Positions 18,749 through 42,339 are shown, numbered from the stretch's first letter. The stretch is DNA of 64,000 bases from Candidatus Woesearchaeota archaeon (GCA_038828875.1 JAWBMQ010000002.1:25314-89313); one strand, 5' to 3'. Program-made: numbers and translations. The notes: generated by a model not told the origin, from the sequence alone.

Positions 18749-18764
18749 TTAGGGGTGAAAAGTT

Positions 18765-24400: not shown

Positions 24401-24451
24401 AAATATTTTTTGTGCAATAAACTTTATAAATTTTATTTCTTCAACAAGTTT

Positions 24452-24649
24452 ATGGAAATTTACATTGAAAGAACAAATAAAAAGTTTCAAAAGAATGTTG
24501 ATAAAATTAAAGTGATAGATCTACTAAAGGAGTTAAATATAAATTTGGAAGAGGTTTTAGTAACTAAGAATGATGAATTAGTTGATGAAAATGAAATTTT
24601 AGAAAATGATGATAAAGTTAAGATAATTTCAGTTATCTCAGGAGGCTAA
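24452..24649 (+). CDS. ThiS/MoaD/SAMP-like beta-grasp sulfur-carrier protein (65 aa, C-terminal Gly-Gly)
   Basis: MEIYIE...VKIISVISGG followed by stop. Its stop lies 1 bp before the ncsA start. Confidence 0.7.
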   Translation: MEIYIERTNKKFQKNVDKIKVIDLLKELNINLEEVLVTKNDELVDENEILENDDKVKIISVISGG

Positions 24650-24650
24650 T

Positions 24651-25532
24651 ATGAATTGTTTTTGTGGGAAAAAAGCGATAATTAGTGGATATTGTAAAGA
24701 TCATTTTATAGAATATGTAGAAAATAAAGTAAAACAAACGATAGAAAATTTCAATTTATTTACAAAAAACGATAGAATTGTTGTTGCTACTTCAGGAGGT
24801 AAGGATTCTTTAACAGTACTCTATCTTTTGAATAAATTTGGTTATAATGTTGAAGGTCTATTAATAGATGAAGGAATCTCAAATTATAGAGAACACACGA
24901 TTTCAGATTTAAGAAAATTTTCAGAGCAACACAATATAAAATTTAGAATAATTTCTTTCAAAGAGGAATTTAACTATACTCTTGATGAAATAGTAACTAA
25001 AATTAAAGATACTTTACCTTGTACTTTCTGTGGCATCTTTAGAAGACATTTACTTAATAAATATTCTAAGCAATACGATGTTCTTGTTACTGGACATAAT
25101 TTAGATGATGAATCACAAAGTGTGTTAATGAATTTATTAAAGAATCAAATTCCAATTCTTGCAAGAATCGGTCCTGTTGCAGGAATTAAAAGGATGAATT
25201 TTACGAAAAGAGTTAAGCCGTTGTATTTGCTAACTGAAAAAGAGATAAAAGCATACACTATTTTGCTTAATTTTCCGATAACTTATTCAGAATGTCCTTA
25301 TGCTAAATATAGTTATAGGAATCATGTTATTGATTTTATTCATAAGTTCTCAAATTCTAAATCAATAAAGGAAAACATAATTAATTTTCATTTAGAACGA
25401 TTATCAAGATTAAAAGAGAAATATCAAGATACTGAATTAAGATTTTGTAAAATATGTAATGAACCATCAACAAAAGAAATATGCAATTCATGTAAATTGA
25501 TAATGAAAATAACGGGTGAAATGAATGAATAA
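24651..25532 (+). CDS. ncsA: tRNA 2-thiolation PP-loop ATPase (NcsA/TtuA family)
   Basis: PP-loop SGGKDS, an N-terminal CxxC...C..H Zn finger, and a C-terminal CKIC...C..C Zn finger. Confidence 0.8.
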   Translation: MNCFCGKKAIISGYCKDHFIEYVENKVKQTIENFNLFTKNDRIVVATSGGKDSLTVLYLLNKFGYNVEGLLIDEGISNYREHTISDLRKFSEQHNIKFRIISFKEEFNYTLDEIVTKIKDTLPCTFCGIFRRHLLNKYSKQYDVLVTGHNLDDESQSVLMNLLKNQIPILARIGPVAGIKRMNFTKRVKPLYLLTEKEIKAYTILLNFPITYSECPYAKYSYRNHVIDFIHKFSNSKSIKENIINFHLERLSRLKEKYQDTELRFCKICNEPSTKEICNSCKLIMKITGEMNE

Positions 25533-26357: not shown

Positions 26358-27326
26358 ATGGATACGAATAAAGGATTAAAAAAAGCATTAGATAGCGAGT
26401 TTGTAGAAAGTGTGTTGATAAGTGGTAGGTATATGCCTGTAGAAATTATTAAAGAACAGAAGAATGTTTTTACTGTAAAAGATATTTTAAGCTTAATGAA
26501 TGATTTTATTAAAGACTATAATTATATTAAAAATGTTGTAAGCGAGAAAAATTTAGGTTTAAAAATTGAGCAGATTCCTTCTGTAGAAGAAGAATTTGAA
26601 AATTTAAAAAAGTATTATAATAAAATGAATGATGCAATAAAAAGATATTATTCTTCATTCAAAAATCAAGATGTGTCACTGTATGAATCAACAAAGGAGT
26701 TTGAATTTTTATTTGAAAACAAGTATTTGAATCCAAAAAATATAAAAGAAATTGTAGCAAATGATAAGGACATAGAACAATTAATTCAAAGTGACGAATT
26801 TTATGATTCTCAACTTTTTACAGATTTTTATAGATTAAATAAAGCATTTGAACCAAGAATGATTTATTTTACTAGAAACGTTTTTGGTGTTTTGGATGAT
26901 CTTTTGAAAAAACAGCAAGCAGAACTTTTAGAAAGAATCGAATATGAAAAAATTTTAAATGAAATTGTTTTTGTAGACAGAGTTCCAGTGAGAGTTTCTT
27001 TTGAGGAAAATCCTTTGTATTTTGATAGAATAAATGTTGCTTATGTAGAAAGAAAAAGAGATAGAGATGCTATTGAAAAATATCTTGTATTGAAAAATTT
27101 AGAACCTGTTTATGAAAGATTAATTGATAAATATACAAAATTAAAATCAGGGTTTTATGAAATGTTAAATTATCATTATGATGTAGAAAGAAAAATTTTA
27201 AGGAATGACTCTTTAGTAGAAAACCTAAAAGAATCAATTTTGAAGCAAATGATTGCAGAAGAAATAACAAAAAGAGTTAATGAATCTAGTAATATGAAGT
27301 ATGGTAGTAAGTATACTCTCTTTTAA
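26358..27326 (+). CDS. Hypothetical acidic helical protein (block ORF 1)
   Basis: 322-aa ORF preceded by GAGGTG. No motifs. Confidence 0.5.
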   Translation: MDTNKGLKKALDSEFVESVLISGRYMPVEIIKEQKNVFTVKDILSLMNDFIKDYNYIKNVVSEKNLGLKIEQIPSVEEEFENLKKYYNKMNDAIKRYYSSFKNQDVSLYESTKEFEFLFENKYLNPKNIKEIVANDKDIEQLIQSDEFYDSQLFTDFYRLNKAFEPRMIYFTRNVFGVLDDLLKKQQAELLERIEYEKILNEIVFVDRVPVRVSFEENPLYFDRINVAYVERKRDRDAIEKYLVLKNLEPVYERLIDKYTKLKSGFYEMLNYHYDVERKILRNDSLVENLKESILKQMIAEEITKRVNESSNMKYGSKYTLF

Positions 27327-27414
27327 TTTTTTTATTTTTTAGATTTTTAGTGCATAAATTTTATATATTTTCTTTTTATTCTACTAAAACAAAATTTCAC
27401 TAAATAGTGATAAT

Positions 27415-28551
27415 ATGACAAAATATGTATCAGATTTAGATTTTGATTTTAGATTGTATCCGGTATTAGTTTATTTTTCTCCTTTAATACTTCCTAAAGA
27501 AGAATATGACAAATTAGGTCTAGAATTTCCAGATTCAGAATATCTAATTAATCAAAAATCATTGAGAAAGTCATTTAAACTTATGAAAAAAGAATTTAAT
27601 AAATCTTTTAAAAAAGATATTTCTGATATTGAAACATTATTTGAGAATTATTATTTTTCACTTAAAAACATAATTAATTTACCTCAAGAAATGTTATCTT
27701 TGTTAGGATATATTTATTATAAAGAGGAAGTGGAGCCAATAATTGAAGAACGAATGAAACGCTTTAATGAAAAAGTTGAATCTTATGTTTTTGATTATGA
27801 ACTATTGTCTAGAAAAAAAAGAAATGATGATTCTTTGGAGTTTATTGTTGATGAAACTAATCTAATGGAATTTATTGCATTATCAACTGATTTAAGTTTT
27901 CAAGAATTTTATTTAAATTTTTCAGAAAATGATGAAGAATCAAATTATTATTTAGCTTATTATTTGGAAGAAGAAAAAAATAAAAAAATCAAAGATATTC
28001 TTAAATATGATAACCTTGCTTATAGTTATCTTAAAAGAAAATATTTTGAATTAGCCAATATTTTAGATAAAATTGATGATGATTTCAATAAATTATATGA
28101 AAGAATGCTTTTCCTTTACAATGAGGGAGTTTCTTCTCTTAACAAAATAATGAAATTATTGCCATCTGCAGATCCTGATGCTAAAAAAATATTGAAAAAT
28201 CAATATAGTCATTTAGTTAAAATAATAGCAATAGAAGATGTTTTTTTAAAAAATTTAGAGGATAATTATTTTTCAATACAGATTAATAAAAATTATTTAA
28301 ATTCAGTCTATAATAAAATTAGATTGAATGATGATGTTTATTCAGAAATAAGTTCTTTTTTTCAATATCAAGGTTTAGCGATGTATATGTATGATTTAAT
28401 TGTTGAGTTAAATAAGAAACTTAGATGGGGAGAGAGGGATTTGAACCCTCGACACCACGGTCTTCAGCCGTGTGCTCTCCCAGCTGAGCTATCTCCCCAA
28501 AAATCTATTATTGATGATAAGCAATCATTTATAAATTTTTCGAAGAGGTGA
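27415..28551 (+). CDS. Hypothetical protein (block ORF 2); the 3' ~40 codons are the antisense translation of tRNA-Phe, so the true 3' end is uncertain
   Basis: ORF with no in-frame stop until 28551. The C-terminus ...GERDLNPRHHGLQPCALPAELSPQ is the tRNA read in antisense. Confidence 0.4.
   Translation: MTKYVSDLDFDFRLYPVLVYFSPLILPKEEYDKLGLEFPDSEYLINQKSLRKSFKLMKKEFNKSFKKDISDIETLFENYYFSLKNIINLPQEMLSLLGYIYYKEEVEPIIEERMKRFNEKVESYVFDYELLSRKKRNDDSLEFIVDETNLMEFIALSTDLSFQEFYLNFSENDEESNYYLAYYLEEEKNKKIKDILKYDNLAYSYLKRKYFELANILDKIDDDFNKLYERMLFLYNEGVSSLNKIMKLLPSADPDAKKILKNQYSHLVKIIAIEDVFLKNLEDNYFSIQINKNYLNSVYNKIRLNDDVYSEISSFFQYQGLAMYMYDLIVELNKKLRWGERDLNPRHHGLQPCALPAELSPQKSIIDDKQSFINFSKR
28426..28498 (-). 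tRNA. tRNA-Phe: tRNA-Phe (anticodon GAA), 73 nt, no intron, CCA not encoded
   Basis: Minus-strand sequence GGGGAGAtaGCTCagctgggaGAGCaCACGGctGAAgaCCGTGgtgtcGAGGGttcaaatCCCTCTCTCCCCa. It folds into a canonical cloverleaf with a 7-bp acceptor stem, D arm, 5-bp anticodon stem, GAA anticodon and T-psi-C arm GTTCAAATC. Confidence 0.9.
28528..28535 (-). promoter_or_regulatory. Putative TATA box (TTTATAAA), with a BRE-like CGAAAAA, about 30 nt upstream of the tRNA-Phe 5' end
   Basis: The minus-strand context is cgaaaaatttataaatgattgcttatcatcaataatagattttt|GGGG. Confidence 0.35.
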
Positions 28552-28556
28552 AATAG

Positions 28557-29255
28557 ATGCAAACATTAGAAGAAAAATTAGTTAGTGATGGAGTTAAGTT
28601 GTTTAAGGTAATGTATCCTTTGAATGTGTATTTAACTAGATTAACAGAAATAGTAGAAAAAAATGATTTGAAAAAAGATGAAACTTTGATGAAGTTGATA
28701 TATGGATTAAATGATGCTATAGAAAGATATGATAAGACGGTAATTGATTTCTGGAAGTTATATGCTGCAAGTTCTGAACTTTACAAAAAATATTATTCTC
28801 AAGATAAAGAGCTCGATAATGTTGAAAATTATTATAAAAAAGATTTAATTCAATTGGTAACAGGTGCGAAGTCAAAAGATTTGCCAAAAGTTATAATGTT
28901 CTTAAAAAAGGAGTTAGATTTTAAAGATGTGCCTGATTTGTATTCAATTTTGAAAAGGGATAAACTTGCATATCACGTTAACAATGCGTACATTTATTTC
29001 ATTGATATATTTGAAAAAGTACATAAAATTTACTCACATTTTGAAAAAAAGAAAAAAGATTATCTTTACCTGCCTTTAGTAAAGTTAGAAAATTCAATAT
29101 ATTCAATTTTAGGAAATGATAAGAATGATTTAAATCCTGAAGTTTTGAATTATTGTACTGAAATTGGATTAAAAATGCATTTAATTTCTCATGTTTTAGA
29201 TCTAGAAATTTATAAAAAATTCGAAGAAAAAAAGAAAAATTATATTAAAAAATAA
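28557..29255 (+). CDS. Hypothetical acidic helical protein (block ORF 3)
   Basis: ORF preceded by GAGGTGA. Confidence 0.5.
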   Translation: MQTLEEKLVSDGVKLFKVMYPLNVYLTRLTEIVEKNDLKKDETLMKLIYGLNDAIERYDKTVIDFWKLYAASSELYKKYYSQDKELDNVENYYKKDLIQLVTGAKSKDLPKVIMFLKKELDFKDVPDLYSILKRDKLAYHVNNAYIYFIDIFEKVHKIYSHFEKKKKDYLYLPLVKLENSIYSILGNDKNDLNPEVLNYCTEIGLKMHLISHVLDLEIYKKFEEKKKNYIKK

Positions 29256-29267
29256 TGCGGTGAAAAC

Positions 29268-30008
29268 ATGGACGAAAAAGAATTATCAAAAATTGTTGTT
29301 GCAATAAGTAATCTTTATAATGATACAAACAATAATTTGTACAAATATAATGAATTATTTTTTGATACTTTTTTTGAACATTTTAGAGAATATTATCGTG
29401 AGTTCATTGAAAATTATAAATCAATAACTGATGCATTAGAAATGATGAATGAGGATTATAAGAATTTAATGTTCAATTCAGTAAAAATCTTTCCAGAGTA
29501 TAGACATATGTTTGAATCAACCAAAAATTTTCAAAATTTGAAATCACTTTACAATTCAAATTCTTTAGAAGAGTTAATTATAAATAATCCTTTGGAAGAT
29601 GTTGTTGTTTTCTTTAGAGATGAATTAAATTTTAAAGAGAACTTTGATATTGAAAATAAGCACAAAGTTATGGATATTTTGTATTCTTTCCTTTCTGATT
29701 TTGAAGTAGTATATTATAGAATTCTTAAAACTGAAAAATGGATTAATCATTTAACATCCAATGGAACTTACATTTCAAGAAAATACTTGGATATTTCATC
29801 ATTTTTTGGAGAATGGCTTTATGAGGTTTATTCTTTCGATAAGAAAATTTCAGAAAAATTGAAGCAATATGAAGAAAATAGTTTAACTTATTTTGAAGAC
29901 AAAAGCGAATATTTGAAACTTTGGTTGAGAAATTATTTGTTAGCAAACGTTGACAATTATAAGGATCTGTTTTTATCTAAAAAAGAAAATATTATTACTA
30001 AAAAGTGA
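29268..30008 (+). CDS. Hypothetical protein (block ORF 4)
   Basis: ORF preceded by GGTGA. Confidence 0.5.
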   Translation: MDEKELSKIVVAISNLYNDTNNNLYKYNELFFDTFFEHFREYYREFIENYKSITDALEMMNEDYKNLMFNSVKIFPEYRHMFESTKNFQNLKSLYNSNSLEELIINNPLEDVVVFFRDELNFKENFDIENKHKVMDILYSFLSDFEVVYYRILKTEKWINHLTSNGTYISRKYLDISSFFGEWLYEVYSFDKKISEKLKQYEENSLTYFEDKSEYLKLWLRNYLLANVDNYKDLFLSKKENIITKK

Positions 30009-30062
30009 TTTCAAATTAACAAATTTTATAAATGGTTCTTTTTTTGGTAGTTTGGTGATATT

Positions 30063-30575
30063 ATGAGAGCTAATCTAGATGATTTTTTCAAGATGGACAA
30101 TTATAAAATTAGAGCTGAAATCAAGCAGTTAGATGCTGAAGTTTTGGTTTCTGCAAAATTATCAAAAAGTTTAGAAGATACAATTTCAAATTACAAAGAA
30201 GAATTATCTTATGATGTAAGATTAAGCTATGAAAAATTTCAGAAAAATGCCAAAAATTTGTTGAGTTATTGGTATAACTATAATACACAGAATGGAAATG
30301 GTAGAATTACATTGAGTGAATATTTATCTTCATTAAGGGCAAAACTTAATTCATTGTCTATTGATTTGTACGAATTAGAGCTTTCAATTTACGAAACTTT
30401 CAAAAAGCAAAAAAATGAAATATATGAATCTATAATTAGCACTATACATTCATCATTTAATTGGGAATATTTAGCTAAGAAAAATGATAAATATCTTGAA
30501 AGAGTTAAAAATGAGGTGCTTGATTTTTACTATCCACCTTTAAATGATGAGGATCTTTCAAATGATGTATATTGA
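30063..30575 (+). CDS. Hypothetical protein (block ORF 5)
   Basis: ORF preceded by GGTGATA. Confidence 0.5.
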   Translation: MRANLDDFFKMDNYKIRAEIKQLDAEVLVSAKLSKSLEDTISNYKEELSYDVRLSYEKFQKNAKNLLSYWYNYNTQNGNGRITLSEYLSSLRAKLNSLSIDLYELELSIYETFKKQKNEIYESIISTIHSSFNWEYLAKKNDKYLERVKNEVLDFYYPPLNDEDLSNDVY

Positions 30576-30637
30576 AAATAGATTTTTAAATAACAAAATT
30601 TATAAATTATGTAATACTACTACTAAATGGTGATACA

Positions 30638-31114
30638 ATGAATATAGAAAACCTACTTAGAAAATATGCAGTTGCTAATGCATACAAAAATACAATAGAA
30701 AAGTACAATGAAATTTTTGATAAAGAATACTACAAGGTAAGAAACGAAGATGAATTTTCTGATGAAGTTAACTACGTTAATTTGAAAAAGAAGACCTTAG
30801 AATTAGCAATGAAAAATTTAGAGATGGGAAGTGAATTAATACAAGTTAAAGTAAGTAAAGTAAAAAATTATCTTAACAAGAATATTGACGAGCAAAAGTT
30901 GAAAACTTCTGAAGAATATTTCGATAATTTTATGGATAATTTGATTACAAATTGCTTAGTTATGGATGAATTGAGAAGTTTAGTAGAAGGAAGATATTTA
31001 AATAATAGATCGCAATTAAACAGAGAAACATTAGACTCTATTGAGAATCTTTCAAATACAGTTAAAGAATACAGGAAAATAATAAAATCATTAATGGCAA
31101 TTGATGTTAATTAA
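30638..31114 (+). CDS. Hypothetical protein (block ORF 6)
   Basis: ORF preceded by GGTGATA. Confidence 0.5.
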   Translation: MNIENLLRKYAVANAYKNTIEKYNEIFDKEYYKVRNEDEFSDEVNYVNLKKKTLELAMKNLEMGSELIQVKVSKVKNYLNKNIDEQKLKTSEEYFDNFMDNLITNCLVMDELRSLVEGRYLNNRSQLNRETLDSIENLSNTVKEYRKIIKSLMAIDVN

Positions 31115-31148
31115 TTTGTTTATTTTTTATATTTTTTGAGGTGGGATA

Positions 31149-31505
31149 ATGAATTATAAAAATTTAGAAGATAAATTAGAGTTTCAAAATTTTAGATATT
31201 ATTCAGAAGTAATCAAAAAGAATCTAAATATTAAAGGATATTTTGACATCCTTAGGAATTGTTATTATGATGATTCAAATATAAGAAAATATTATTATTC
31301 ACTTGTTGAGGAATATCAAAGAAGTCCTAAAAAAAATAAAGATTTAGATTTAAAAATTTTTGAGTTATACAAATCAATGAATTATCTAACAAATTCAAAA
31401 AATAAAAAATCAGACATTTTAAACTACAACGAAGAAATACAAAAGTTTGCTATTGAATATTTAACTATAAAAAAACAAATTGAAAATGATAGACGACAAA
31501 ATTGA
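31149..31505 (+). CDS. Hypothetical protein (block ORF 7)
   Basis: ORF preceded by GAGGTGGGATA. Confidence 0.45.
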   Translation: MNYKNLEDKLEFQNFRYYSEVIKKNLNIKGYFDILRNCYYDDSNIRKYYYSLVEEYQRSPKKNKDLDLKIFELYKSMNYLTNSKNKKSDILNYNEEIQKFAIEYLTIKKQIENDRRQN

Positions 31506-31932
31506 TCAGCTTTATGATGAATTTTATGCAAAGATGGGAGAATTTTTTAATAGTGAAGAAATTACAGATTCTTTAGTAATTTTGCTTTCAAGAAAAAAAG
31601 TTTTGGAAAATTATATTAACAAAGTAATTGATCAAGTTAATTATATCCGACATAAAAATGAAAATTTTTATTATGATGTTTTAGATGATTTATCAAAATT
31701 AACTATTAGTAAAATGTGGAAAGTTCTTAATAATAAACCATCTGAACAGCAATCACTTGAAGAATATGAGAAAAATATTCTAGAATATCATAAAGAAGTA
31801 ATAGATTGTGCTAACGATTTAATATATTTGAAAAAGTTGATTGATTATTATACTCTTTATGATCTTTTTTGTGCTCCATATTATTTAGAAGAAGCAAAAA
31901 AATTTTCTAAACAAATTATTAAGGAGGTATAA
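31480..31932 (+). CDS. Hypothetical protein (block ORF 8)
   Basis: ORF overlapping the previous gene by 26 bp. Confidence 0.45.
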   Translation: MKMIDDKIDQLYDEFYAKMGEFFNSEEITDSLVILLSRKKVLENYINKVIDQVNYIRHKNENFYYDVLDDLSKLTISKMWKVLNNKPSEQQSLEEYEKNILEYHKEVIDCANDLIYLKKLIDYYTLYDLFCAPYYLEEAKKFSKQIIKEV

Positions 31933-31934
31933 AA

Positions 31935-32456
31935 ATGACTCTTCCTACAAGTATAGAAAAGATAATTAATGAGTATTATACTATTATAAATGCATTTCAT
32001 TCGAAGTACTTTAAAAATGAAAATTATAACTACACAAACAAATTTGCAGCATATAAGAAAATTTTTGAAAGTAATGAAGAAATATTAGATTATTTTTCTC
32101 AAAAAATTTCAGAAGATGCTAAAAAAAATATTAAACAATATAAAAAATTGCTGAATCTTTTTGATGAATTTAGGAAAGAATATTCTAAGTTTTGCAAAGA
32201 AAAGAAAAAAGTTGAAATAATATATCATAATAATAAAGAGTACAATTTAGAAGAATATTTCTATGATTTAGATAAAATTGCTTTAGAGATGTTAAAAGAT
32301 AGCAATGTTGAAGATGTTGGAAAAACGTTAAATGAGTTTTTGAAAAAGCGAATTGATTATATTGCAAAAGGTTATCAATTATCTATAATGTATTTGAATT
32401 TAATGGATGAATGTTCAAAAGTTTATGAAGATGGTGGATTGTATGACTCTCGATAA
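31935..32456 (+). CDS. Hypothetical protein (block ORF 9)
   Basis: ORF preceded by GGAGGT. Begins 3 bp after the previous stop. Confidence 0.5.
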   Translation: MTLPTSIEKIINEYYTIINAFHSKYFKNENYNYTNKFAAYKKIFESNEEILDYFSQKISEDAKKNIKQYKKLLNLFDEFRKEYSKFCKEKKKVEIIYHNNKEYNLEEYFYDLDKIALEMLKDSNVEDVGKTLNEFLKKRIDYIAKGYQLSIMYLNLMDECSKVYEDGGLYDSR

Positions 32457-32973
32457 AAAATTAAATGAACTTTATAAGAATTTGAAAGATAAATGGAAAC
32501 AGTTTGAAGAGTGGGAAAATCAGATTAGATCAAAATATCTTGAAAAATGGAAAAGTAAAGATATTGAAGATATCTATCAATTTATTAAATATCCTATGAG
32601 TTATGAGTTAATGAACCTTATTTTAGAGAAAGAATCAAAATATTATAAATTAAACGTAAAAACAAATAATGAGTATGATCAATTGTTTAATAAATTTTTA
32701 GAACTAAAAGATAAGAAATTTAAAAAGGATTATGTTAAATTTAATGGAACAACAATCTATTCTCTGGAAGATTTATTTTATATAACAAGAAATTCAACGG
32801 ATTTACCTTTTGTTTTTTTAGAAACTTCTTATTCTTTAGGTCTAAATGAAACTTCAACTATGAATATTTTTGAAAATTATTTAGAAGATTTAAAAAGTTA
32901 TTATCAATCTCTTTATGAATTCATAGATATGTTAACAAATTACATTGTAAAAAGAGGTGATAAAAATGAATAA
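32407..32973 (+). CDS. Hypothetical protein (block ORF 10)
   Basis: ORF overlapping the previous gene. A later start, e.g. MTLDKK at ~32443, is possible. Confidence 0.45.
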   Translation: MNVQKFMKMVDCMTLDKKLNELYKNLKDKWKQFEEWENQIRSKYLEKWKSKDIEDIYQFIKYPMSYELMNLILEKESKYYKLNVKTNNEYDQLFNKFLELKDKKFKKDYVKFNGTTIYSLEDLFYITRNSTDLPFVFLETSYSLGLNETSTMNIFENYLEDLKSYYQSLYEFIDMLTNYIVKRGDKNE

Positions 32974-33550
32974 TTTAGAAAAAATTACATCAATGTCTTA
33001 TCCTGAGTACAAAATGATAGAAGATAGGTGGAAGAAACATTTAGATTATATTGCTTCAAGAATCAATATGTTGTATAGTTCAATTGGCAATAAAACATTA
33101 ATAGATAAATTTTTGAATTATTATCAGCAAAGCAATGGAAATCTATATAATAAATTAAACGATCTTTTTTCTCAATATAATATAATGCTAAGCTATTCCT
33201 CAAATTCTAAAGTAAATGCAATTATTCAAGAGATAACTCAAGAAATACAAATTTATGAAAATCTAAAAAATAAGTTAGAGGAAATAACTTTTTCTCCAGA
33301 GAAAAGGTATAATTTTAGCGATATGATAAAAAAATATATTCAAGAGAACAACATAAAGAATTTTAATTTAGTAAAAGATTTTCCAAAATTGTTTTTTTGG
33401 ATCTCTAGGAAGAATAACCTAAATACTCAAGAGATAAAAGTAGGTTTAGACACATATATTTTGAAAAGAGAACAAATGTATTACAGTTTATTTAATTTAG
33501 TTGAGCTTTCTATAGATTTAGTAAAACAAGTATCCAGTAATAAAAAATAA
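32957..33550 (+). CDS. Hypothetical protein (block ORF 11)
   Basis: ORF preceded by AGAGGTGA. Confidence 0.5.
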   Translation: MIKMNNLEKITSMSYPEYKMIEDRWKKHLDYIASRINMLYSSIGNKTLIDKFLNYYQQSNGNLYNKLNDLFSQYNIMLSYSSNSKVNAIIQEITQEIQIYENLKNKLEEITFSPEKRYNFSDMIKKYIQENNIKNFNLVKDFPKLFFWISRKNNLNTQEIKVGLDTYILKREQMYYSLFNLVELSIDLVKQVSSNKK

Positions 33551-33599
33551 TAGATTTTGAAATCATAATATTTTTTAATTCTTTTTTGATATTTTATAA

Positions 33600-34133
33600 T
33601 TGGTGATACAGATGAAAGTTGGAAAAAATATTGAAAAAAAATTAGATGAATTATCTTTTAAAAGGTTAAGTATGGAATATTATAGAGCTTTAGAATTGTT
33701 ATATTCAAATTATATTTCATATAGATTTAGAGAACACATTGAAAATGAGAATATAAAAAATTACTATAATTTTGAGAAAGAAATTTCAAAGAAAGTGAAT
33801 CAAGAGCTAAAGCCTGTTCATGATATGTTTAATTACGTCAAAAAATCAATATTCGAATATCTTGATAATCCAGAAAACTTTAAAGATCCTGTTGTTTTTA
33901 AGTATTATGTTAAATCTTTGGTCAATCAGTTTGAAAAGACAAATTCTTTTTTTGAAAAACATGTTATGCCATATCTTTGTCAAAAACTAGAAAATAGAAA
34001 AGCAAATATAGTTAGTTATGATAAAGCAAATAAAAAGATATACTTTTTCTATACTAATCGGTATGAAGAGATGAACAATCTTTACAAAACAATGCAAATG
34101 ATCACAGAAAAGCTGAAAAAAGCCATTTCTTAA
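33600..34133 (+). CDS. Hypothetical protein (block ORF 12)
   Basis: ORF preceded by GGTGATA. Confidence 0.5.
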   Translation: MVIQMKVGKNIEKKLDELSFKRLSMEYYRALELLYSNYISYRFREHIENENIKNYYNFEKEISKKVNQELKPVHDMFNYVKKSIFEYLDNPENFKDPVVFKYYVKSLVNQFEKTNSFFEKHVMPYLCQKLENRKANIVSYDKANKKIYFFYTNRYEEMNNLYKTMQMITEKLKKAIS

Positions 34134-34187
34134 TCTTTTTTATTTTTTTAAGTTTTCTTTAAAATTTTAAAAAATTTTATAAATGAT

Positions 34188-34760
34188 TTGTATTTATCAT
34201 ACAGTGATAAAATGTCTTTGGATTTCAATATTGAAAAATATTATGAACATTTGTTGGAAGAAGTAAGAGATAGTTTAGTTTCTTTAGGTTGGGATAAGCA
34301 GTTTGTTGATGAACATATTCAAGAGTTAAATAAATATAATAGATATTCTTTATCAGAAGAAACCGATTTAGAATTGAGAAGATATAAAAATTTAATACAT
34401 AAAATTTATTTAGGAATGCCTTATAGATTGAAAGAATATTTTTTAGAAAGATCTGAATATGTTTCTTTAGATGTAAATAAAATCTTAGAACTTTTTGATG
34501 AAACTTATGATAAATTAATAGAATTTAGAAATAAAAAAAGAAATTCAGAATTAAAAGATTATGTTGATCAAGAAAGTAAATTTTTAACTGAACTAGTTCA
34601 CTATGGTTTAGGTATTGAAAATATAGAATCTATTTTTGAGATTATTTATTCTGATGAAGATCATCTTGATGAAAATACGATTTATGAAAAAAATCAAGCG
34701 GCAATAAGTTATATAAAAGATTTTTATTTTCCTGAATTAATTTTGAAAAAAGATGATTAA
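34188..34760 (+). CDS. Hypothetical protein (block ORF 13)
   Basis: ORF. Confidence 0.45.
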   Translation: MYLSYSDKMSLDFNIEKYYEHLLEEVRDSLVSLGWDKQFVDEHIQELNKYNRYSLSEETDLELRRYKNLIHKIYLGMPYRLKEYFLERSEYVSLDVNKILELFDETYDKLIEFRNKKRNSELKDYVDQESKFLTELVHYGLGIENIESIFEIIYSDEDHLDENTIYEKNQAAISYIKDFYFPELILKKDD

Positions 34761-34762
34761 AT

Positions 34763-36007
34763 ATGGATTCATACGAATATAACCTTTTGAAAAGAGAGCG
34801 AAATTTAGTAGATCTTTTTGAAAAAAATTCACATTTCCTTTTTTATGAAAATTTAAGAAAAAATTTTTCATATGCTGATGCTGATAAACTTTATGCAATT
34901 ATCGTTACTAAAATATCTTCTTTAGATTATTCTCTTCTTTTAGAGCTTAAAGCAGGAATAGAAGATAAGATTAATGATTATTACAACAATAGACAAATCT
35001 ATTCTTCAAAAATTTTTGATGAGTTAGAAGAACGATTGATTAAAGAAGCAAAACCATTCCTTGATAAAATTAGAAATGAATATAATTTATTTTATAACAT
35101 AGTATTATCTAATTTAAATCATCTCAAAGATCATGAGGCTTTTGCAGAAGCATTAATAAATATGACTTTAGCTGAAATTATCACCTTAGATTTAACATAT
35201 AAAGAAATTTCATCTATGGAAATGAATTATGCGTATTTAAAATATGATGAAATTAAGAACAAAATTTTAAAAAACAAAGAAAAAAGAATTTACATTCAAC
35301 CTGAGTTTGATGCAATTTTAAATGCATCATTATCAATTTCTGATAAAGATTTTATGCGATATTTACCTAGTTTTTTTGATCATTATAAATATGTTTTTGG
35401 TTTTGTATTAAGCAAAAATTCCTTTGAAAATTTAAAAAATTCAATTCAGGATTATAAAAATTCTATGGATAGAATTTGTTTTGATTTTCTAGAAGAAATT
35501 TCTAAGAAGAACATTTATTTTTTACCGACTACTTTCGAATTGAGATATAAGACGTTAGTTCCAGAAATGGAAATTTATGTTAATGAAAGTTATTATAAGA
35601 AATTGATGGTACAGCTTGATGTTTCTTATTTTTCAATGGAATATCAGAATTATATCTTAGAAAAATTTCAAAAGATAAAATCTTTTAATCTAGAAATTTT
35701 AGAAGATAATAAACTAAATGCTTCTTCTTTATTTCAAAACTTAGAAACATTAATTAAAGACCCCATGAAGTCAGAATCCCTCTTTTTAGAACCTATCTTA
35801 AAGATAATTCAAGATGCAATGTTAAACAATTCGAATTATTCAAATATATTCTTTAAAGAATTGAAAAATCAATATTTGAAAATAGCATTTTATGGAAATC
35901 TTATTGAATCTCTTGATTTAATTCAGGATTACTTTAATTATAGTAATAAGTTAGAAAAATTCAATGATTTTTTAAATTATTTAGACAATAAATGTAATCT
36001 AAGATGA
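34763..36007 (+). CDS. Hypothetical protein (block ORF 14, 414 aa)
   Basis: ORF beginning 3 bp after the previous stop. Confidence 0.5.
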   Translation: MDSYEYNLLKRERNLVDLFEKNSHFLFYENLRKNFSYADADKLYAIIVTKISSLDYSLLLELKAGIEDKINDYYNNRQIYSSKIFDELEERLIKEAKPFLDKIRNEYNLFYNIVLSNLNHLKDHEAFAEALINMTLAEIITLDLTYKEISSMEMNYAYLKYDEIKNKILKNKEKRIYIQPEFDAILNASLSISDKDFMRYLPSFFDHYKYVFGFVLSKNSFENLKNSIQDYKNSMDRICFDFLEEISKKNIYFLPTTFELRYKTLVPEMEIYVNESYYKKLMVQLDVSYFSMEYQNYILEKFQKIKSFNLEILEDNKLNASSLFQNLETLIKDPMKSESLFLEPILKIIQDAMLNNSNYSNIFFKELKNQYLKIAFYGNLIESLDLIQDYFNYSNKLEKFNDFLNYLDNKCNLR

Positions 36008-36543
36008 CATTTGACTTAGAAAGAAAACTCAATCAATATTTTTTGGAATATAAGGAAAAGTTGTTTAATCAAGGCATTCCTGAAAAATTCATAAATTATT
36101 ATACGGATTATTTTTTTAACAAAATTGATAAGTTAGTTTTTATCTATGAAAGTGCAGAGAAAAAATTAGATTCGATTTATTTTCTCTTAAACGAAATTTT
36201 TGTAGATGATAAAAAGATAGATGACATTCTTTTTTCTTGTGATCCTTTCCTTTCAGAGTATTATTTTAGCATAGATCTTTTGATGACTTCTCTTGAACAA
36301 ATAACATCAACAAATGAAATAAATTTCAAAGAAATTAAATCAGAATTGAGAAATTATTATAAAGCAGTTACTACTTTTATAAAATGCGCATATTATTTTG
36401 ATAAAATTTATTATGTGATAAGTGATGCAACTTTATTTTTAGATAAAAGCTTTCAAAATAATGAAAAAAAGATGTACAACTACATTAGATACAATATTTC
36501 TTTGTTAAAAGAGCAATATCATAGCAAAAAATTTAAAAACTAA
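36004..36543 (+). CDS. Hypothetical protein (block ORF 15)
   Basis: ATGA start/stop overlap with the previous gene. Confidence 0.5.
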   Translation: MTFDLERKLNQYFLEYKEKLFNQGIPEKFINYYTDYFFNKIDKLVFIYESAEKKLDSIYFLLNEIFVDDKKIDDILFSCDPFLSEYYFSIDLLMTSLEQITSTNEINFKEIKSELRNYYKAVTTFIKCAYYFDKIYYVISDATLFLDKSFQNNEKKMYNYIRYNISLLKEQYHSKKFKN

Positions 36544-36561
36544 AAAATAATAAATAGTTTT

Positions 36562-37185
36562 ATGGCATCTAAAACATTAAAGATCTTTATTGGTGTAGCT
36601 GGATTATTTACTGGAATTTCTTTGCTTTTTCCTCAAACCTACACAGGAAATTTTGTCAATCAAAATCCATCTTTTAGTATTTTTTCTTATTTAATGATTT
36701 TAGCATCATTTTTGTTGATTCTTGTTGCATCATCAGAATCAGAGACTTCAGAAAAGAAAGAAACTCTTGAAAATATAGTTGATGAATCTATTGATCCTGA
36801 TTTAGAAAAGTATTATTCTTTAGCAAAAAAAATATCAGAAAGCTATGAAAAAGCAATAGTACCTAAATATGATAAAGAACAAATAAAGGTAGATCTCTTT
36901 AATCTTATGAAAGGAAATATTTTATATTATGAAGAGAATAAAGAGAAGATGAAAAGGATTTTGGATTATTTATCAGCTAACAAAGATAAAGAATTGGCAG
37001 AATTAGTAAAAACAAAGATTGATTTCTTACAGAAAGAATTAGAATATATGATCAATTACATTGATGATTTTGAATATTCTTTAGATAAGGATAAAAAAGA
37101 GATGAACATAAAAAGTAAGAGAGAAGAGTTGCTGAAAGAGTTGAATGAATATTATAAAAAAGTAAAAAGCAAGTTGCAATATTAA
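36562..37185 (+). CDS. Hypothetical membrane protein (two N-terminal TM helices plus a coiled-coil tail; block ORF 16)
   Basis: N-terminal segments IFIGVAGLFTGISLLF and FSYLMILASFLLILVA, followed by a K/E-rich heptad-like tail. Confidence 0.5.
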   Translation: MASKTLKIFIGVAGLFTGISLLFPQTYTGNFVNQNPSFSIFSYLMILASFLLILVASSESETSEKKETLENIVDESIDPDLEKYYSLAKKISESYEKAIVPKYDKEQIKVDLFNLMKGNILYYEENKEKMKRILDYLSANKDKELAELVKTKIDFLQKELEYMINYIDDFEYSLDKDKKEMNIKSKREELLKELNEYYKKVKSKLQY

Positions 37186-37641: not shown

Positions 37642-38574
37642 ATGAAAAATCCTTTTGATGTTAAATCCTTGGATGAATTGGTTTTAATGTTTAGAGATTA
37701 CAAAAATTATGATATTAGAACCTATGAAACAGAGAAATATAGTTATCAAATAAGTGATTATGATTACCTAATCATATCTAAGAAGGATTTCAAATCAAAG
37801 CATATTTACTTTGACTATTATTTTGTTCTTCTGGATCAACTTTATCAGAATTTTATGCTAGAAATAAATGATAATGAATTTTATCTTTCTTATAACAATC
37901 AAAAAATAAGACTTGCAAAACCTAATCAAGTTATCAATGGCTTGTTTTGTTTCTTAGACGATTCTGTTTTAGATATTTTTGTTGAAGACAATGAGTATAT
38001 GAATTCCTTGTACAAAAATTTAACAAATTTGATTTCGTCAGTTAAAAAAGTGAGTGTTTTTGATCAGATAGATAAAACCATTTTTTTAAAATCTTCAACA
38101 AAGAAGAATTTGATAAACGTATTAGATGAACTTTTTGTGCTTAGACAAGTAACTAAAAAAGTATCAATTTTATTGACTTATGATGTTGTTGATGAAAAAT
38201 TTTTAAGCATAAAATATGCAATTGATAATAAAGACAATGATAAATTTTATGTGCCTTTGGATTTTTACATAAAAGAAGGTAAAGGAATTTGTAAGCAATT
38301 TTCTTTACTTTATGGTTATTTTTTAGAAAAATTGATTCAAGAGAAATATCTTCCAGGATCTTTTGCAATAGATTTAAATTATCGTGATTTCAACGATTTG
38401 CCTAGTGGAGGCCATATGTGGGTAAGATATACTTCAGAAGCAGGAAATGTTTTTATTTTAGATAATAACCATATTATTGAATTGTTTTCTTCAAAAGAAA
38501 ATAAAAGTAATGCATATTATAAAAGACCTTACGAATTTGAGGAATATGTTAAGAAAAAAATAAAGAATGTTTAA
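37642..38574 (+). CDS. Transglutaminase-like / papain-fold cysteine protease superfamily protein, paralog 1
   Basis: Candidate Cys-His-Asp triad: GKGICKQFSLLYGYFLE, ~50 aa later GGHMWVRY, ~15 aa later FILDN. No signal peptide. Confidence 0.55.
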   Translation: MKNPFDVKSLDELVLMFRDYKNYDIRTYETEKYSYQISDYDYLIISKKDFKSKHIYFDYYFVLLDQLYQNFMLEINDNEFYLSYNNQKIRLAKPNQVINGLFCFLDDSVLDIFVEDNEYMNSLYKNLTNLISSVKKVSVFDQIDKTIFLKSSTKKNLINVLDELFVLRQVTKKVSILLTYDVVDEKFLSIKYAIDNKDNDKFYVPLDFYIKEGKGICKQFSLLYGYFLEKLIQEKYLPGSFAIDLNYRDFNDLPSGGHMWVRYTSEAGNVFILDNNHIIELFSSKENKSNAYYKRPYEFEEYVKKKIKNV

Positions 38575-38622
38575 CCACTACAAGATAGTAAAATTTATAA
38601 GGAAATTTATTTTTCTTTTTTT

Positions 38623-39585
38623 ATGGATAAATTGTTCAAAGCTAAAAGTTATGAAGAGTTGGAAGATTTAATTTATGAATATCTTGATCACGATCATAGA
38701 TGCTATCAGGATTTTAAAAGATATTATGAGATAAGCGATTATGATTACCATATTACGTTTTTAAATGATTCTAAAAGGTTTGTTGAGGTTTCTTTTTCAT
38801 ATTTTTACAATTTGTTTGATCATCTTTTGATAAATCAATTGATAAAAGTAAAAGATAATGAATTTATTCTTCAAGATTGTGATCTTAAGTTGGTTAAAGA
38901 GGATTCAGTTATCAATAGGTTGTTTTATCTATATCAGATTCAAGAACCTGCACACATTTATATTGAGGACAACGATTACATGAATAAAATCTATAATTCT
39001 TTGAAAGAAAGAATTTCTAAATCAAAAGAAAAATCAGTACTTCAAGAGATTGACAAAACAATTCATCTTAAAGAGCAAACGAAGAACAATTTAGAAGATC
39101 TTTTAATTCATGAACTGAATATTCTCAATAATGTTAGATTAACAGTATTGGAACATTTAAGATATGATTATTTTAAAGAAAATCAAATTGCAAAAATCAA
39201 ATCAAAAAATAGAAAAATTATTGTTGAAAAACCTTATGTGTTGTTAGATGAATTTATAAGAGAAAGAATTGGAGTTTGTAAGCAATTTTCTTTGTTCTAT
39301 GGTTACTTAATTGAAAAATTAATACAAGATAATATTCTTTTTGGAAACTATTGTTTGGATTCTAACTTAGTTTATTCCTCAGAAAAACCACCTTCAAGTC
39401 ATATTTGGGTAAGATATAAAACCATAACAGGTTCAACATTCATACTTGATCAAGAATATATTTTGGAATTAAATTCAAAAGTCGAAAACAAGATGACTAT
39501 TTTTTATAAAAGACCTAAGGAGTTCGAAAGACACATTGTTGGCTTGTTAAATGCAAAATTAATGGTAATAAACAAAAAAGCTTAA
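38623..39585 (+). CDS. Transglutaminase-like cysteine protease superfamily protein, paralog 2
   Basis: GVCKQFSLFYGYLIE ... SHIWVRY ... FILDQ. Shares the N-terminal ISDYDYHI motif with paralogs 1 and 3. Confidence 0.55.
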   Translation: MDKLFKAKSYEELEDLIYEYLDHDHRCYQDFKRYYEISDYDYHITFLNDSKRFVEVSFSYFYNLFDHLLINQLIKVKDNEFILQDCDLKLVKEDSVINRLFYLYQIQEPAHIYIEDNDYMNKIYNSLKERISKSKEKSVLQEIDKTIHLKEQTKNNLEDLLIHELNILNNVRLTVLEHLRYDYFKENQIAKIKSKNRKIIVEKPYVLLDEFIRERIGVCKQFSLFYGYLIEKLIQDNILFGNYCLDSNLVYSSEKPPSSHIWVRYKTITGSTFILDQEYILELNSKVENKMTIFYKRPKEFERHIVGLLNAKLMVINKKA

Positions 39586-39599
39586 TAAAATTAACTACC

Positions 39600-40592
39600 A
39601 TGGAAAAAATTTTCAAAGCTAAAACTTTAGAGGATTTAGATCGTTTTATTTTTAGAAATGAGTCTCATGATCATAGAGTATATGAGGATTATGATTTTTA
39701 TTATTACATAAGTGATTATGATTATCATATTTGCCCAAAATGGGATTCTAGAAAAACAATAACAATTTCTAGAGATTATTATTACCAACTTTTCAAAGAT
39801 CTTCGAAATCAATCTAAGTTAGAGATAAAGGATAATGAATTCTTCTCAAAAGATCATGATATTCCTATTGTAAAGCCCAATAAAATCAAAGATAGAGTAT
39901 TTATTTTTTATAAAGAACCATTAGACATTATAGTTCAAAACAATGACTATATGCAAAATATCTATGAAAGATTAAAGAAAAAGATCTTTTCTACAAAGAA
40001 AGGTGAAGTTCTAAGCAGTATAAATAATGAAATTTTTTTAACAAAAAAAACTTATGAAAAGTTAGATGATATTACTTTAAATGAGCTTCATTTTTTGAAA
40101 AATTTGAGAGATGTAGTTAATGAAATTTTAGTTTATGATGTGAAAGAAGAAAACAAACTTCTTACAGAATTTATAATAAAAGAGATTCAGGAAATAAAAG
40201 TCTTTGATGATCTTTTTGCCTTTTTATATAATCCAACAAAAAATAGGATATCCATAAAATTAGAGGAATACTTAAAACGAGGAAAAGGAGTTTGTAAGCA
40301 ATTTGCATTGCTCTATGGTTATTTATTAGAATCATTAAGTGATGATTTTCTTTTAGCTGGAAATTTCTCTTTAGATCTGTATCTAATTAATGATTATAGA
40401 GATAGTTTGAATTTAGGTCATATTTGGGTAAGGTATGAATCTTTAGAAAATAAAGTATTTATTCTTGATCAAAGATATATTTTGGAGTTGTTTTCTAATA
40501 CAGAAAGACAAATAGGTCAGCATTATAATACGCCTAATGAATTTGAAGAATATATCAAGAGAAGAATAAAGAATAAATATTATTCAGTATAA
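39600..40592 (+). CDS. Transglutaminase-like cysteine protease superfamily protein, paralog 3
   Basis: GKGVCKQFALLYGYLLE ... GHIWVRY ... FILDQ. Confidence 0.55.
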   Translation: MEKIFKAKTLEDLDRFIFRNESHDHRVYEDYDFYYYISDYDYHICPKWDSRKTITISRDYYYQLFKDLRNQSKLEIKDNEFFSKDHDIPIVKPNKIKDRVFIFYKEPLDIIVQNNDYMQNIYERLKKKIFSTKKGEVLSSINNEIFLTKKTYEKLDDITLNELHFLKNLRDVVNEILVYDVKEENKLLTEFIIKEIQEIKVFDDLFAFLYNPTKNRISIKLEEYLKRGKGVCKQFALLYGYLLESLSDDFLLAGNFSLDLYLINDYRDSLNLGHIWVRYESLENKVFILDQRYILELFSNTERQIGQHYNTPNEFEEYIKRRIKNKYYSV

Positions 40593-41422
40593 AATTCTTC
40601 TTCTATTCTAGAAACTTCACCATTTTTATTATGATAAACTTTAACGAATCCAAAACCAACATAAGGAACAATCTTTTTTCCTTTCATAAATAAAGTTTGA
40701 TTGCATAATGTTCCAGATTCAAAAGCGTGAATGTTTCTTCTGAAGATATACAGATACTTATGATAATGTCCTGAATGTAAAATATTAGGTTTATTTTCAC
40801 CTTCAAGAGCGTCAATTAATTTTTCAATTTGATAGCTCATTCCAAATGCACTCTTATCGTTAGCATGGAAAAGTTTAATCTTAATTCCATCAATAGTAAT
40901 ACTTCCATCCATTTGTCCAAGATGAACATAATTATCTAAAACTTCTTCAAGCTTTTTTCCTACTATGATGCCAATGTTAAACTTGCTATGGTACCACATA
41001 TCATGATTTCCATCAATGCCATAAATAGTTACAGGAATTTTACTTAACAATTCAACAGCGTAATTGAATTGTTCATCAAATCCTATCTTTTCTAATTCAT
41101 AAATGTGTCCATCTCTTCCAGACATACCTTCCAAAGTATCACCGACATTTATTACAAAATCTGGTTTCTTTTGTTTAATCATTTTCACCATATAGTCAAA
41201 CATTTTTTTGTTGAATTGTTTATGTCCTATGTGAGGATCTGCAAAATAACAATAATAAAAGCTTTTGTTTCCTAAATCAATTTTCAAAGGTTCTTCTTCC
41301 TTTTGTTTAGCGTTTAAAATTATTTGTTCTAATTTATCTAAAGAAACATTATTTTCCTTCATCAATTTGATAATTTTTTCTAAATTACCATTATACATTT
41401 TAATGATTTCATCATCATTCAT
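40580..41422 (-). CDS. Calcineurin-like metallophosphoesterase, paralog A
   Basis: Motifs D-x-H (FADPHIG), GD (NVGDTLEG), GNHD and GHYH. Confidence 0.75.
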   Translation of the reverse strand: MNDDEIIKMYNGNLEKIIKLMKENNVSLDKLEQIILNAKQKEEEPLKIDLGNKSFYYCYFADPHIGHKQFNKKMFDYMVKMIKQKKPDFVINVGDTLEGMSGRDGHIYELEKIGFDEQFNYAVELLSKIPVTIYGIDGNHDMWYHSKFNIGIIVGKKLEEVLDNYVHLGQMDGSITIDGIKIKLFHANDKSAFGMSYQIEKLIDALEGENKPNILHSGHYHKYLYIFRRNIHAFESGTLCNQTLFMKGKKIVPYVGFGFVKVYHNKNGEVSRIEEEFYTE

Positions 41423-41430
41423 CTTTTCAC

Positions 41431-42339
41431 CTAATCTCTATAACTTGGAACAAAAACATGATTTAATCTTTTTATTTCATTATTTTCATAATTAACTTTT
41501 ACAATACCAAAGCCCATTGCTGCTGGAATTTTTTTATTTTTCATGTACAACGTTTGTCCACATAAGGTTCCTGACATAATTGCTACAATATCTCTTAATT
41601 CTGTTTTAAATGCTTGATGATAATGTCCTACGTGCAAAATGTTCGGTTTTTCACCGCCTCTAATACTTGCAATAAGTTTCTGAATTTTATAACTTGTAGT
41701 ATATGCTGGAGTATCAGTAGGATGAAATAACATGATTTTTATAGAATTTACTAAGATGTGTCCTTCTAATTGTCCAAGATAATTATAATTAGGTAATTCC
41801 TTTTCTAATTCATAACCTACTATAATTTGATTATTTTTCTTTTTGTAGAATTCTTTATCATGTTCTCCATCTATTGCATAAATTGGAATCTCAATTAAGC
41901 TTAGAAGATTTTTAGCATAATTCAACTGTTCTTGTAAGCCAAATTTATCCAATTCAAATGTGTTTCCTTCTATGCCTTTCATTCCTTGAACAAGATCTCC
42001 AACAAAAACCACAAAATCAGGTCTGTACTTCTTTATAGCTTTTAGCATTTTAAGATAAAGCTTTTCACTGAATTCAATATTACCCATATGAGTGTCAGAA
42101 AAGTACAAATATTGAAACTTTTTTTCAGGAATATCTATTTTAGCTGCTTCTTTAACAATATTTTTAGAACCAAGAATCATTGCTTCTAAATCTTCTAAGT
42201 TTAGTTTATATTTATTCATGAACTCAATTACTTTCTTTTTATCTTCATCACTTATCTTTATATTCTTGACTTCAAAACTTTTAAGAATATCTTCTAAATT
42301 CCCCCCCTCGTTCATTTTACTTTTATTAGTTTTTAACAT
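41431..42339 (-). CDS. Calcineurin-like metallophosphoesterase, paralog B
   Basis: Motifs FSDTHMG, VGDLVQG, GEHD and GHYH. A G7 tract lies at codons 4-6. Confidence 0.75.
   Translation of the reverse strand: MLKTNKSKMNEGGNLEDILKSFEVKNIKISDEDKKKVIEFMNKYKLNLEDLEAMILGSKNIVKEAAKIDIPEKKFQYLYFSDTHMGNIEFSEKLYLKMLKAIKKYRPDFVVFVGDLVQGMKGIEGNTFELDKFGLQEQLNYAKNLLSLIEIPIYAIDGEHDKEFYKKKNNQIIVGYELEKELPNYNYLGQLEGHILVNSIKIMLFHPTDTPAYTTSYKIQKLIASIRGGEKPNILHVGHYHQAFKTELRDIVAIMSGTLCGQTLYMKNKKIPAAMGFGIVKVNYENNEIKRLNHVFVPSYRD

Follow-up and report, generated by a model that had tools for sequence, protein, structure and literature searches.

The 64,000-nucleotide (nt) window analyzed here is a segment of an archaeal chromosome of ~25% GC from a Candidatus Woesearchaeota archaeon (GCA_038828875.1, JAWBMQ010000002.1:25314-89313). 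Between positions 26358 and 37185, it carries an array of 16 open reading frames (ORFs), O01 to O16, all on the + strand and encoding proteins of 118–414 amino acids (aa). We show that the array is native to the chromosome and not foreign DNA: its 16 orphan genes are genuine, protein-coding, and inherited vertically, and they occur solely in one narrow lineage of Woesearchaeota (DPANN), of roughly genus level. The array is under clear purifying selection and, with the exception of O16, evolves approximately three times faster than the neighboring housekeeping genes.

Coding Capacity and Selection

We recovered the same set of ORFs as the original prediction and found 96% of the array to be coding. 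In a Markov-1 simulation of the same composition, ORFs of 100 aa or longer numbered 0.39 against the 16 observed, and the longest simulated ORF was 155 aa in comparison with 416 aa. ORF length and density beyond chance, intactness in a second strain, colinearity of O12–O14 in a third lineage, and the ratios of nonsynonymous to synonymous substitution rates (dN/dS) together identify the 16 ORFs as real genes, and their codon statistics were not those of random ORFs.

The second strain, "Candidatus Woesearchaeota archaeon" GCA_038889815.1 (locus tags QXR30, loci L001 and L029), is colinear with the window at a background divergence of ~2% and carries every one of the 16 ORFs in intact form. The third lineage is represented by a 1.7-kb Logan contig (L027) of an unrelated run (SRR7754706), in which O12, O13, and O14 stand in the same order with 77% nucleotide identity and 74%, 67%, and 71% amino acid identity, respectively, the O14 ortholog being partial. 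Nei–Gojobori estimates of dN/dS were 0.22 for twelve low-divergence array genes pooled and 0.20 for O03–O06 (203 synonymous and 278 nonsynonymous differences), while the comparison with the third lineage gave 0.12 for O12, 0.30 for O13, and 0.14 for O14. Six Pfam-annotated neighbors pooled gave 0.07, and O16, the most constrained array member, 0.03.

Five start codons were moved downstream to ATGs preceded by a Shine–Dalgarno (SD) sequence, those of O08 (31486), O10 (32443), O11 (32966), O12 (33612), and O13 (34212), and all five refined starts are identical to the gene calls of the sister assemblies. With these starts, the successive junctions from O01 to O16 measure +88, +5, +12, +54, +62, +34, -20, +2, -14, -8, +61, +78, +2, -4, and +18 nt. 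The six overlapping junctions claimed earlier are thereby reduced to four (-20, -14, -8, and -4 nt); the ATGA start/stop overlap at 36004 is present, and so are the close spacings at 31935 and 34763, the width of which is 2 nt rather than 3 bp. The proposed GGTGA-type SDs ahead of most ORFs were recovered as strong GGTG/GAGG sites 8–12 nt upstream in 10 ORFs and as partial AGTGA sites in two, but O08, O14, O15, and O16 have no SD site upstream. The left flank of the array carries a PP-loop ATPase gene and dtdA, and the right flank a convergent NifU-type scaffold gene and suf genes, which agrees with the location between dtdA and an Fe-S scaffold gene given in the original prediction.

Orphan Status and Lineage Range

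Searches of Pfam, NCBIfam, PHROGs, and PADLOC with all 16 ORFs returned subthreshold matches only, confirming that no family signature is present, and homology to housekeeping families did not emerge. A word-indexed search of 5.8 billion proteins with O14, O16, and the O13 family found relatives in the same species-level lineage only. For O14, the sole relative was its 97% ortholog, both in that search and in an exhaustive phmmer comparison with 1.84 billion cluster representatives. Two scans of the Joint Genome Institute (JGI) metagenomes and sequence searches of the PDB revealed no relatives of the array proteins. Cluster look-ups led to three NCBI metagenome-assembled genomes (MAGs), namely, QW210, which is the window strain, QXS41, and QXR30, and to Logan assemblies of the same samples; all database relatives come from two close strains and the one contig at 77% nucleotide identity. 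The DNA samples of the source environments are runs SRR27730013/14 and SRR7754706.

We also surveyed the synteny of dtdA across 185,579 species genomes, one per GTDB species. The nearest dtdA genes were 30–40% identical, and in their neighborhoods, including those of other Woesearchaeota and Nanoarchaeota, tblastn detected none of the 16 genes and no comparable array was present, although at this distance of the nearest dtdA the comparison is silent on insertion history. The lineage-specific character of the genes is strongly supported by the narrow range of relatives and by their absence near other dtdA genes.

Among the other genes of the window, ~18 of the 30 scanned (~60%) had no Pfam family, including one for a 2,649-aa protein. 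Because so many of the other tested genes are also unannotatable, the run of orphans is less special than it appears, and a trait general to this genome reaches its highest density in the array. The 16 protein families are new, though not unusual in kind; at present they reveal no new mechanism, and the genome around them is similarly orphan-rich. The array is nevertheless a clean and well-delimited case of DPANN "dark matter," 16 adjacent families that have no relatives among billions of sequences and are kept by selection. It offers a compact 11-kb target of soluble proteins for structural genomics and interaction screens on ultra-small symbiotic archaea, and it bears on the origin of orphan genes under extreme AT pressure.

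Lineage-specific modules of hypothetical proteins have been described in archaea, including DPANN (Meheust et al. 2022, PMC9258230; Castelle et al. 2021, PMC8204110), and hypothetical proteins predominate in DPANN genomes (PMC9258230). The array families resemble the published ones in being unannotatable, short, conserved within a lineage, and under selection, and we liken them to families that dominate what distinguishes their lineage. The published modules are of phylum or class level and enriched in transmembrane (TM) helices and signal peptides (PMC9258230), whereas the array covers roughly one genus, consists of contiguous genes, and shows no TM enrichment, 15 of its 16 products being soluble.

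Composition and Codon Usage

The array is slightly more AT-rich, its GC content being 0.22–0.24 against ~0.24–0.29. At third codon positions (GC3), the array and the annotated genes have nearly the same value, 0.175 and 0.173, while at second positions (GC2) the array has 0.187 against 0.278. The lower GC of the array sits at the first and second codon positions and stems from the amino acid composition. Relative synonymous codon usage (RSCU) correlated between the array and the rest of the window at r = 0.97–0.99, and in this profile the synonymous usage of the array was indistinguishable from that of housekeeping genes. The impression that the array is more AT-rich than its flanks therefore holds for the slightly lower overall GC but not for GC3.

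In the array products, precisely those amino acids that AT-rich codons specify (Y, E, L, N, D, and K) are enriched, while G, C, T, P, A, and W are depleted; the products are also poor in H. Relative to the window average, G is found at 0.32 times, C at 0.36 times, and H at 0.71 times the frequency, and the combined G and P content is 1.3–4.8%. The products had been described as uniformly acidic; this is true of twelve, with isoelectric points (pI) of 4.7–6.2, but four are basic (O03, 8.7; O07, 9.1; O11, 9.2; O12, 9.3).

Character of the Products

Fifteen of the products are soluble cytoplasmic proteins and one, O16, is a membrane protein with two TM segments (residues ~5–26 and ~35–60), which bears out the claim of TM helices in the last ORF only. 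The products appear to be essentially all-alpha. Their low G and P content, the depletion of G, C, and H, and structure models suggest that they are compact and probably noncatalytic. Models were computed with AlphaFold2 (AF2) from single sequences, with no alignments, for O10 and O14 only, and their secondary structure is helical. The O10 model, with a predicted local distance difference test (pLDDT) score of 65 and a predicted template modeling (pTM) score of 0.65, has seven helices, of which the long N- and C-terminal ones are confident; with this model, Foldseek matched only generic helical bundles, and no PDB or BFVD entry reached an E value below 0.5. The O14 model (pLDDT 37) was unusable.

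Two family assignments were considered and rejected. The match of O09 to Fic/SoFic proteins reached 19 bits over profile positions 223–297 of 361, the motif HxFx(D/E)GNGRxxR is absent, and there was no Pfam Fic match. The closest sequence match of any array member was that of O13 to the BlaI/MecI (Penicillinase_R) repressors, the O13 profile aligning with MecI residues 48–119 at E = 1.8e-4 and the NCBIfam MecI model giving E = 8e-5. We judged this match spurious: PF03965 was silent at E ≤ 1, and the match was lost with a broader profile (A5) that included the paralog and the third lineage. MecI has an N-terminal winged-helix domain, the first two helices of which lie ahead of the aligned part, and the 21 residues that O13 has there are too few for them.

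tRNA-Phe and Transcription Units

A tRNA-Phe (GAA) gene on the − strand at 28424–28499 (ARAGORN; Rfam RF00005, 70 bits) lies wholly inside O02, as had been noticed. The last ~43 codons of O02 run antisense through the complete tRNA gene, and this part is the sole stretch of the array rich in G, P, R, C, and H (…WGERDLNPRHHGLQPCALPAELSPQ…). A palindromic TTTATAAA TATA box at 28528–28535 is 29 nt upstream of the 5′ end of the tRNA and 21 nt upstream of the ATG of O03, and from its position it could serve both genes.

The start codons of O03, O05 (box at 30025–30032), O06 (30599–30606), O13 (34176–34183), and F1, the first of three tandem paralogs downstream of the array, are each preceded by a perfect TTTATAAA box at a distance of 21–31 nt. 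The motif has 21 copies in the window, approximately the chance number, of which ~12 are intergenic, and it stands in the same arrangement ahead of other window genes. A scan of the window for bacterial promoters and terminators was set aside as irrelevant for an archaeon. Judged by co-direction and short gaps (-20 to 88 nt, with four overlaps), the array has the layout of a single operon. Because perfect boxes precede O03, O05, O06, and O13, however, their position suggests several transcription units and not one operon. The short-leader units would be O01, O02, O03–O04, O05, O06, O07–O11, O12, and O13–O15, the last possibly including O16. Overlaps or 2-nt gaps occur at the junctions O07/O08, O08/O09, O09/O10, O10/O11, O13/O14, and O14/O15, and from this arrangement we infer that translational coupling is confined to the sub-blocks O07–O11 and O13–O15.

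Divergence Islands between Strains

The segment of O03–O06 (28.5–31.0 kb) is 15–25% divergent between the window and the QXR30 strain, and begins exactly at the edge of the tRNA. Comparable islands were found at 15.0–19.8 kb, which includes a radical S-adenosylmethionine (radical-SAM) gene, at 23.7–24.4 kb, and at 39.0–40.8 kb. The four islands are ~15–39% divergent at the nucleotide level, lie mostly over orphan genes, and show a level of divergence similar to the distance to the third-lineage contig. As equivalent islands exist elsewhere in the window, we do not regard the O03–O06 island as a special feature of the array; the most plausible reading of the islands is recombination across the genome with a sister lineage, or else mixing of such a lineage into the assembly (MAG chimerism).

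Paralogs and Duplication

All-versus-all comparisons among the 16 proteins with BLASTP and phmmer found nothing, and the halves of the long proteins matched neither each other nor the short ones. With hhalign likewise negative, the earlier statement that there is no obvious paralogy within the array stands. A paralog could be detected for O13 alone; it lies ~15 kb upstream and outside the array (18765–19421, + strand, 218 aa; phmmer E = 6.5e-6, BLASTP E = 5e-6, 26% identity over the full length). This paralog has 73% amino acid identity between the two strains, and a hidden Markov model (HMM) of the O13 family recruited no further protein of the window. The paralog is the last member of a second small co-directional orphan cluster at 17034–19421, encoding proteins of 262, 257, and 218 aa with low G and P content.

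Two sets of tandem paralogs follow the array. F1–F3 (37642–40592; 310, 320, and 330 aa) have a period of ~980 nt, match each other with phmmer at E ~1e-55 to 1e-63, and belong to no family; one of them has a subthreshold transglutaminase-like (DUF553) match, and the second and third copies lie within a divergence island. On the − strand at 40580–42339, two tandem Metallophos (calcineurin-like phosphoesterase) paralogs, with phmmer E ~1e-77, are located directly upstream of a sufS/sufBD/ABC-ATPase cluster. Together with the O13 paralog at 18765, these sets indicate that duplication–divergence is active in this region.

Interpretation and Alternative Explanations

The explanation that we put forward, and to which we give an even chance, is that the array consists of native, fast-evolving, lineage-restricted orphan genes for nonenzymatic helical-bundle proteins, likely forming small cotranslated complexes, and that it arose by local duplication and divergence. 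The proteins would act as binding or scaffold proteins. Within units, overlapping or abutting genes would be translationally coupled and deliver partners in fixed ratios for small hetero-oligomers, with basic members adjoining acidic ones at O03/O04, O07/O08, and O11–O12/O13 and with O16 as a possible membrane tether. After local duplication, the copies may have diverged beyond recognition under strong AT mutational pressure, and O13 and its upstream paralog would be the last pair still detectable. A parallel is found in Mycoplasma, wall-less bacteria with reduced genomes, where operons encode lineage-specific helical proteins of the cytoskeleton and attachment organelle. The array resembles these terminal organelle operons in its clustered genes, in the acidic, helical, lineage-restricted, and nonenzymatic character of the proteins, and in belonging to a symbiont with a reduced genome; there is no homology between the two, and the likeness is pure analogy.

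Several observations weigh against this explanation. Comparison of the 16 proteins with hhalign was no better than that of reversed-sequence controls (Mann–Whitney P = 0.79). Nine members seemed by eye to share the motif "L-E-K-K-L..Y" at the N terminus; this motif was dropped as a de novo Gibbs search placed it only ~2.3 SD above controls; a regular expression for LEKKL..Y, defined post hoc, matched six of the 16 array proteins and two of 45 others, and the N termini are no better conserved than the remainder of the proteins. Two of the 16 proteins were modeled, one of them (O14) uselessly, and the case for complexes and for a nonenzymatic nature draws on the layout of the genes and on the charge and composition of the products. 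Each promoter is a consensus match in a genome of 75% AT, where TTTATAAA is not overrepresented overall and only its placement is telling.

It is possible, though doubtful, that most members of ~150–200 aa (O05–O13 and O15) form a hidden tandem-paralog family that descends from one helical-bundle gene and has diverged past detection. This alternative concerns origin and is compatible with the explanation above. The narrow size range of nine members (148–194 aa), the loosely common N-terminal motif, and the one pair still detectable at 26% identity speak for it, as do the tandem duplications next door in F1–F3 and the Metallophos pair and the quick saturation, dS being 0.6–1.2 already within the genus. 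The same N-terminal motif was defined post hoc and has z ~2.3, though, and neither the all-versus-all searches, which did not exceed the reversed controls, nor the halves of the long proteins nor the O13-family HMM disclosed another member. We regard as unlikely the idea of one dedicated 16-component apparatus, with O01 to O16 as subunits of a single lineage-specific structure such as an organelle of the cytoskeleton or of host attachment in an episymbiotic DPANN cell, which in its logic would parallel the lineage-specific helical proteins of the Mycoplasma terminal organelle. That the 16 genes encode one novel helical assembly in the cytoplasm, tethered to the membrane, peculiar to this Woesearchaeota lineage (perhaps a cytoskeletal or host-contact structure of an episymbiont), and built entirely from families without relatives elsewhere, is distinctly improbable. 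The strict co-direction and 96% coding density, the gene order conserved in three lineages, the common and unusual soluble all-alpha composition, and the single membrane protein at the end of the array would fit such an apparatus, and DPANN members are generally symbionts (PMC9258230, PMC8204110). Set against these, the internal consensus TATA boxes point to several independent units, the O13 paralog resides in another orphan cluster, co-occurrence is known only across three very close lineages, and adjacency is partly expected where ~60% of the other tested window genes are also orphans.

The original prediction also offered a degraded or novel integrated element, and a remnant of a virus or mobile element that entered beside the tRNA-Phe and lost its hallmark genes would explain small, tightly packed, co-directional orphans with a tRNA inside and a 2.5-kb segment of 15–25% divergence, starting at the tRNA edge, in strains otherwise ~2% apart. 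SSV-type elements, the tRNA-linked proviruses and integrative elements of archaea, have such runs of small co-directional orphan genes, and an ORF reading through a tRNA is a further likeness. Because DPANN viruses are almost unsampled, the absence of database matches is weak evidence. The array nevertheless differs from SSV-type elements in having no integrase or fragment of one, no duplication of an attachment (att) site, codons identical to those of the host, no viral similarity, and fixation in the lineages seen, and we consider a mobile origin very unlikely. No recombinase family was detected in the 16 ORFs or three downstream ORFs with Pfam, PHROGs, and NCBIfam, which likewise lacked capsid, packaging, and replication families; PHROGs gave nothing credible and a BFVD fold search nothing. 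There was no similarity in IMG/VR (queries O01, O02, O13, O14, and O16) or, by tblastn with all 16, in 50,697 phage records and 72,556 plasmids. Neither half of the tRNA-Phe recurs in the 64 kb at up to three mismatches, and flanking direct repeats are missing. All three lineages have the array in the same gene order (O12–O14 in the third), its codon usage is that of housekeeping genes, it encodes a single membrane protein, and the 3′ end of the tRNA faces O01–O02, not the divergent segment; islands elsewhere, including that with the radical-SAM gene, mean that the O03–O06 island is not a property of the array. Most unlikely, in our assessment, are arrays of toxin–antitoxin or effector–immunity pairs, with small basic and acidic partners side by side. 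Such neighbors exist, some of them overlapping (O07 of pI 9.1 with O08 of pI 4.9, O03/O04, O12/O13), and one segment is strain-variable, but that segment is under purifying and not diversifying selection (ω = 0.20), no toxin, antitoxin, immunity, or defense family was found in Pfam or PADLOC, and no DNA-binding fold was detected, the MecI-like match of O13 having gone with the broader profile.

Individual Genes of the Array

O01 (26358–27326, 322 aa, pI 5.4) is a soluble orphan with GAGGTG 7–12 nt upstream and no Pfam family; its ortholog in L001 has 98% amino acid identity and dN/dS of 0.28, and it is annotated in databases as hypothetical protein QXS41_03700 / QXR30_02890. O02 (27415–28551, 378 aa, pI 5.1), the stop codon of which falls within the SD of O03, keeps its full length of 378 aa in L001 and L025, with dN/dS of 0.38 from few substitutions; NCBI gene calls skip it in L001, and in the QXS41 MAG it is called as a partial protein. 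The orphans of the divergent segment are O03 (28557–29255, 232 aa; GAGGTGA SD), with a 74% identical ortholog and dN/dS of 0.19 from 62 synonymous and 79 nonsynonymous differences, O04 (29268–30008, 246 aa, pI 5.1; GGTGA SD), with a 66% identical ortholog in L001 and dN/dS of 0.20, O05 (30063–30575, 170 aa, pI 5.1; 79%, 0.24), and O06 (30638–31114, 158 aa, pI 5.4; 84%, 0.17).

In the block that follows, O07 (31149–31505, 118 aa; GAGGTGG SD, dN/dS 0.25) is an orphan overlapped by 20 nt by O08 (31486–31932, 148 aa, dN/dS 0.20), for which the identical 148-aa call was made in L001 and L025. O09 (31935–32456, 173 aa, pI 6.2; GGAGGT SD, dN/dS 0.24) is an orphan that shares 14 nt with O10 (32443–32973, 176 aa, pI 5.5; GGTGG SD), and O10 in turn shares 8 nt with O11 (32966–33550, 194 aa; GAGGTGA SD, dN/dS 0.21). 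O12 (33612–34133, 173 aa) has a GGTGA SD, and O13 (34212–34760, 182 aa) is the most acidic product of the array, with a pI of 4.7 and a net charge of -17.

O14 (34763–36007, 414 aa, pI 5.2) begins 2 nt past O13. In the third-lineage contig (L027 1236–1330), its ortholog keeps the N-terminal frame (…KDSYEYSLLKRERNL…) with AAG in place of ATG and is consequently called from an internal codon; the AAG may be a noncanonical start or a sequencing error, or the gene may use another start. O15 (36004–36543, 179 aa, pI 5.6) shares the ATGA overlap with O14 and has dN/dS of 0.67, from 13 substitutions only. The two N-terminal TM segments of O16 (36562–37185, 207 aa) are followed by a helical tail.

Other Features of the Window

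At 2600–11611, genes for two small proteins of 179 and 176 aa, each with a single N-terminal hydrophobic segment, precede that of the 2,649-aa orphan, which has a TM or signal segment at its N terminus; all three proteins lack a Pfam family, and the layout resembles that of a giant surface protein accompanied by pilin-like partners. Next to it, at 11654–12946, a Gly-rich protein of 430 aa contains a 348-nt tandem repeat (12017–12831; 2.3 copies, 95% matches) with a 96-nt subperiod. Its counterpart in the other strain has 923 aa, and because of this difference in length the repeat number is taken to vary between strains. At 24410–25532, a small ThiS/SAMP-like ORF, annotated through the Pfam match of its ortholog in L029, stands directly upstream of the PP-loop ATPase gene and dtdA and next to the gene for prolyl-tRNA synthetase (ProRS); with the PP-loop ATPase, its predicted product makes a putative pair of the ubiquitin-like sulfur-carrier and tRNA-thiolation type. 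A 794-aa protein encoded at 51672–54056 matches the S-layer outer-domain family PF05124 (E = 5e-15).

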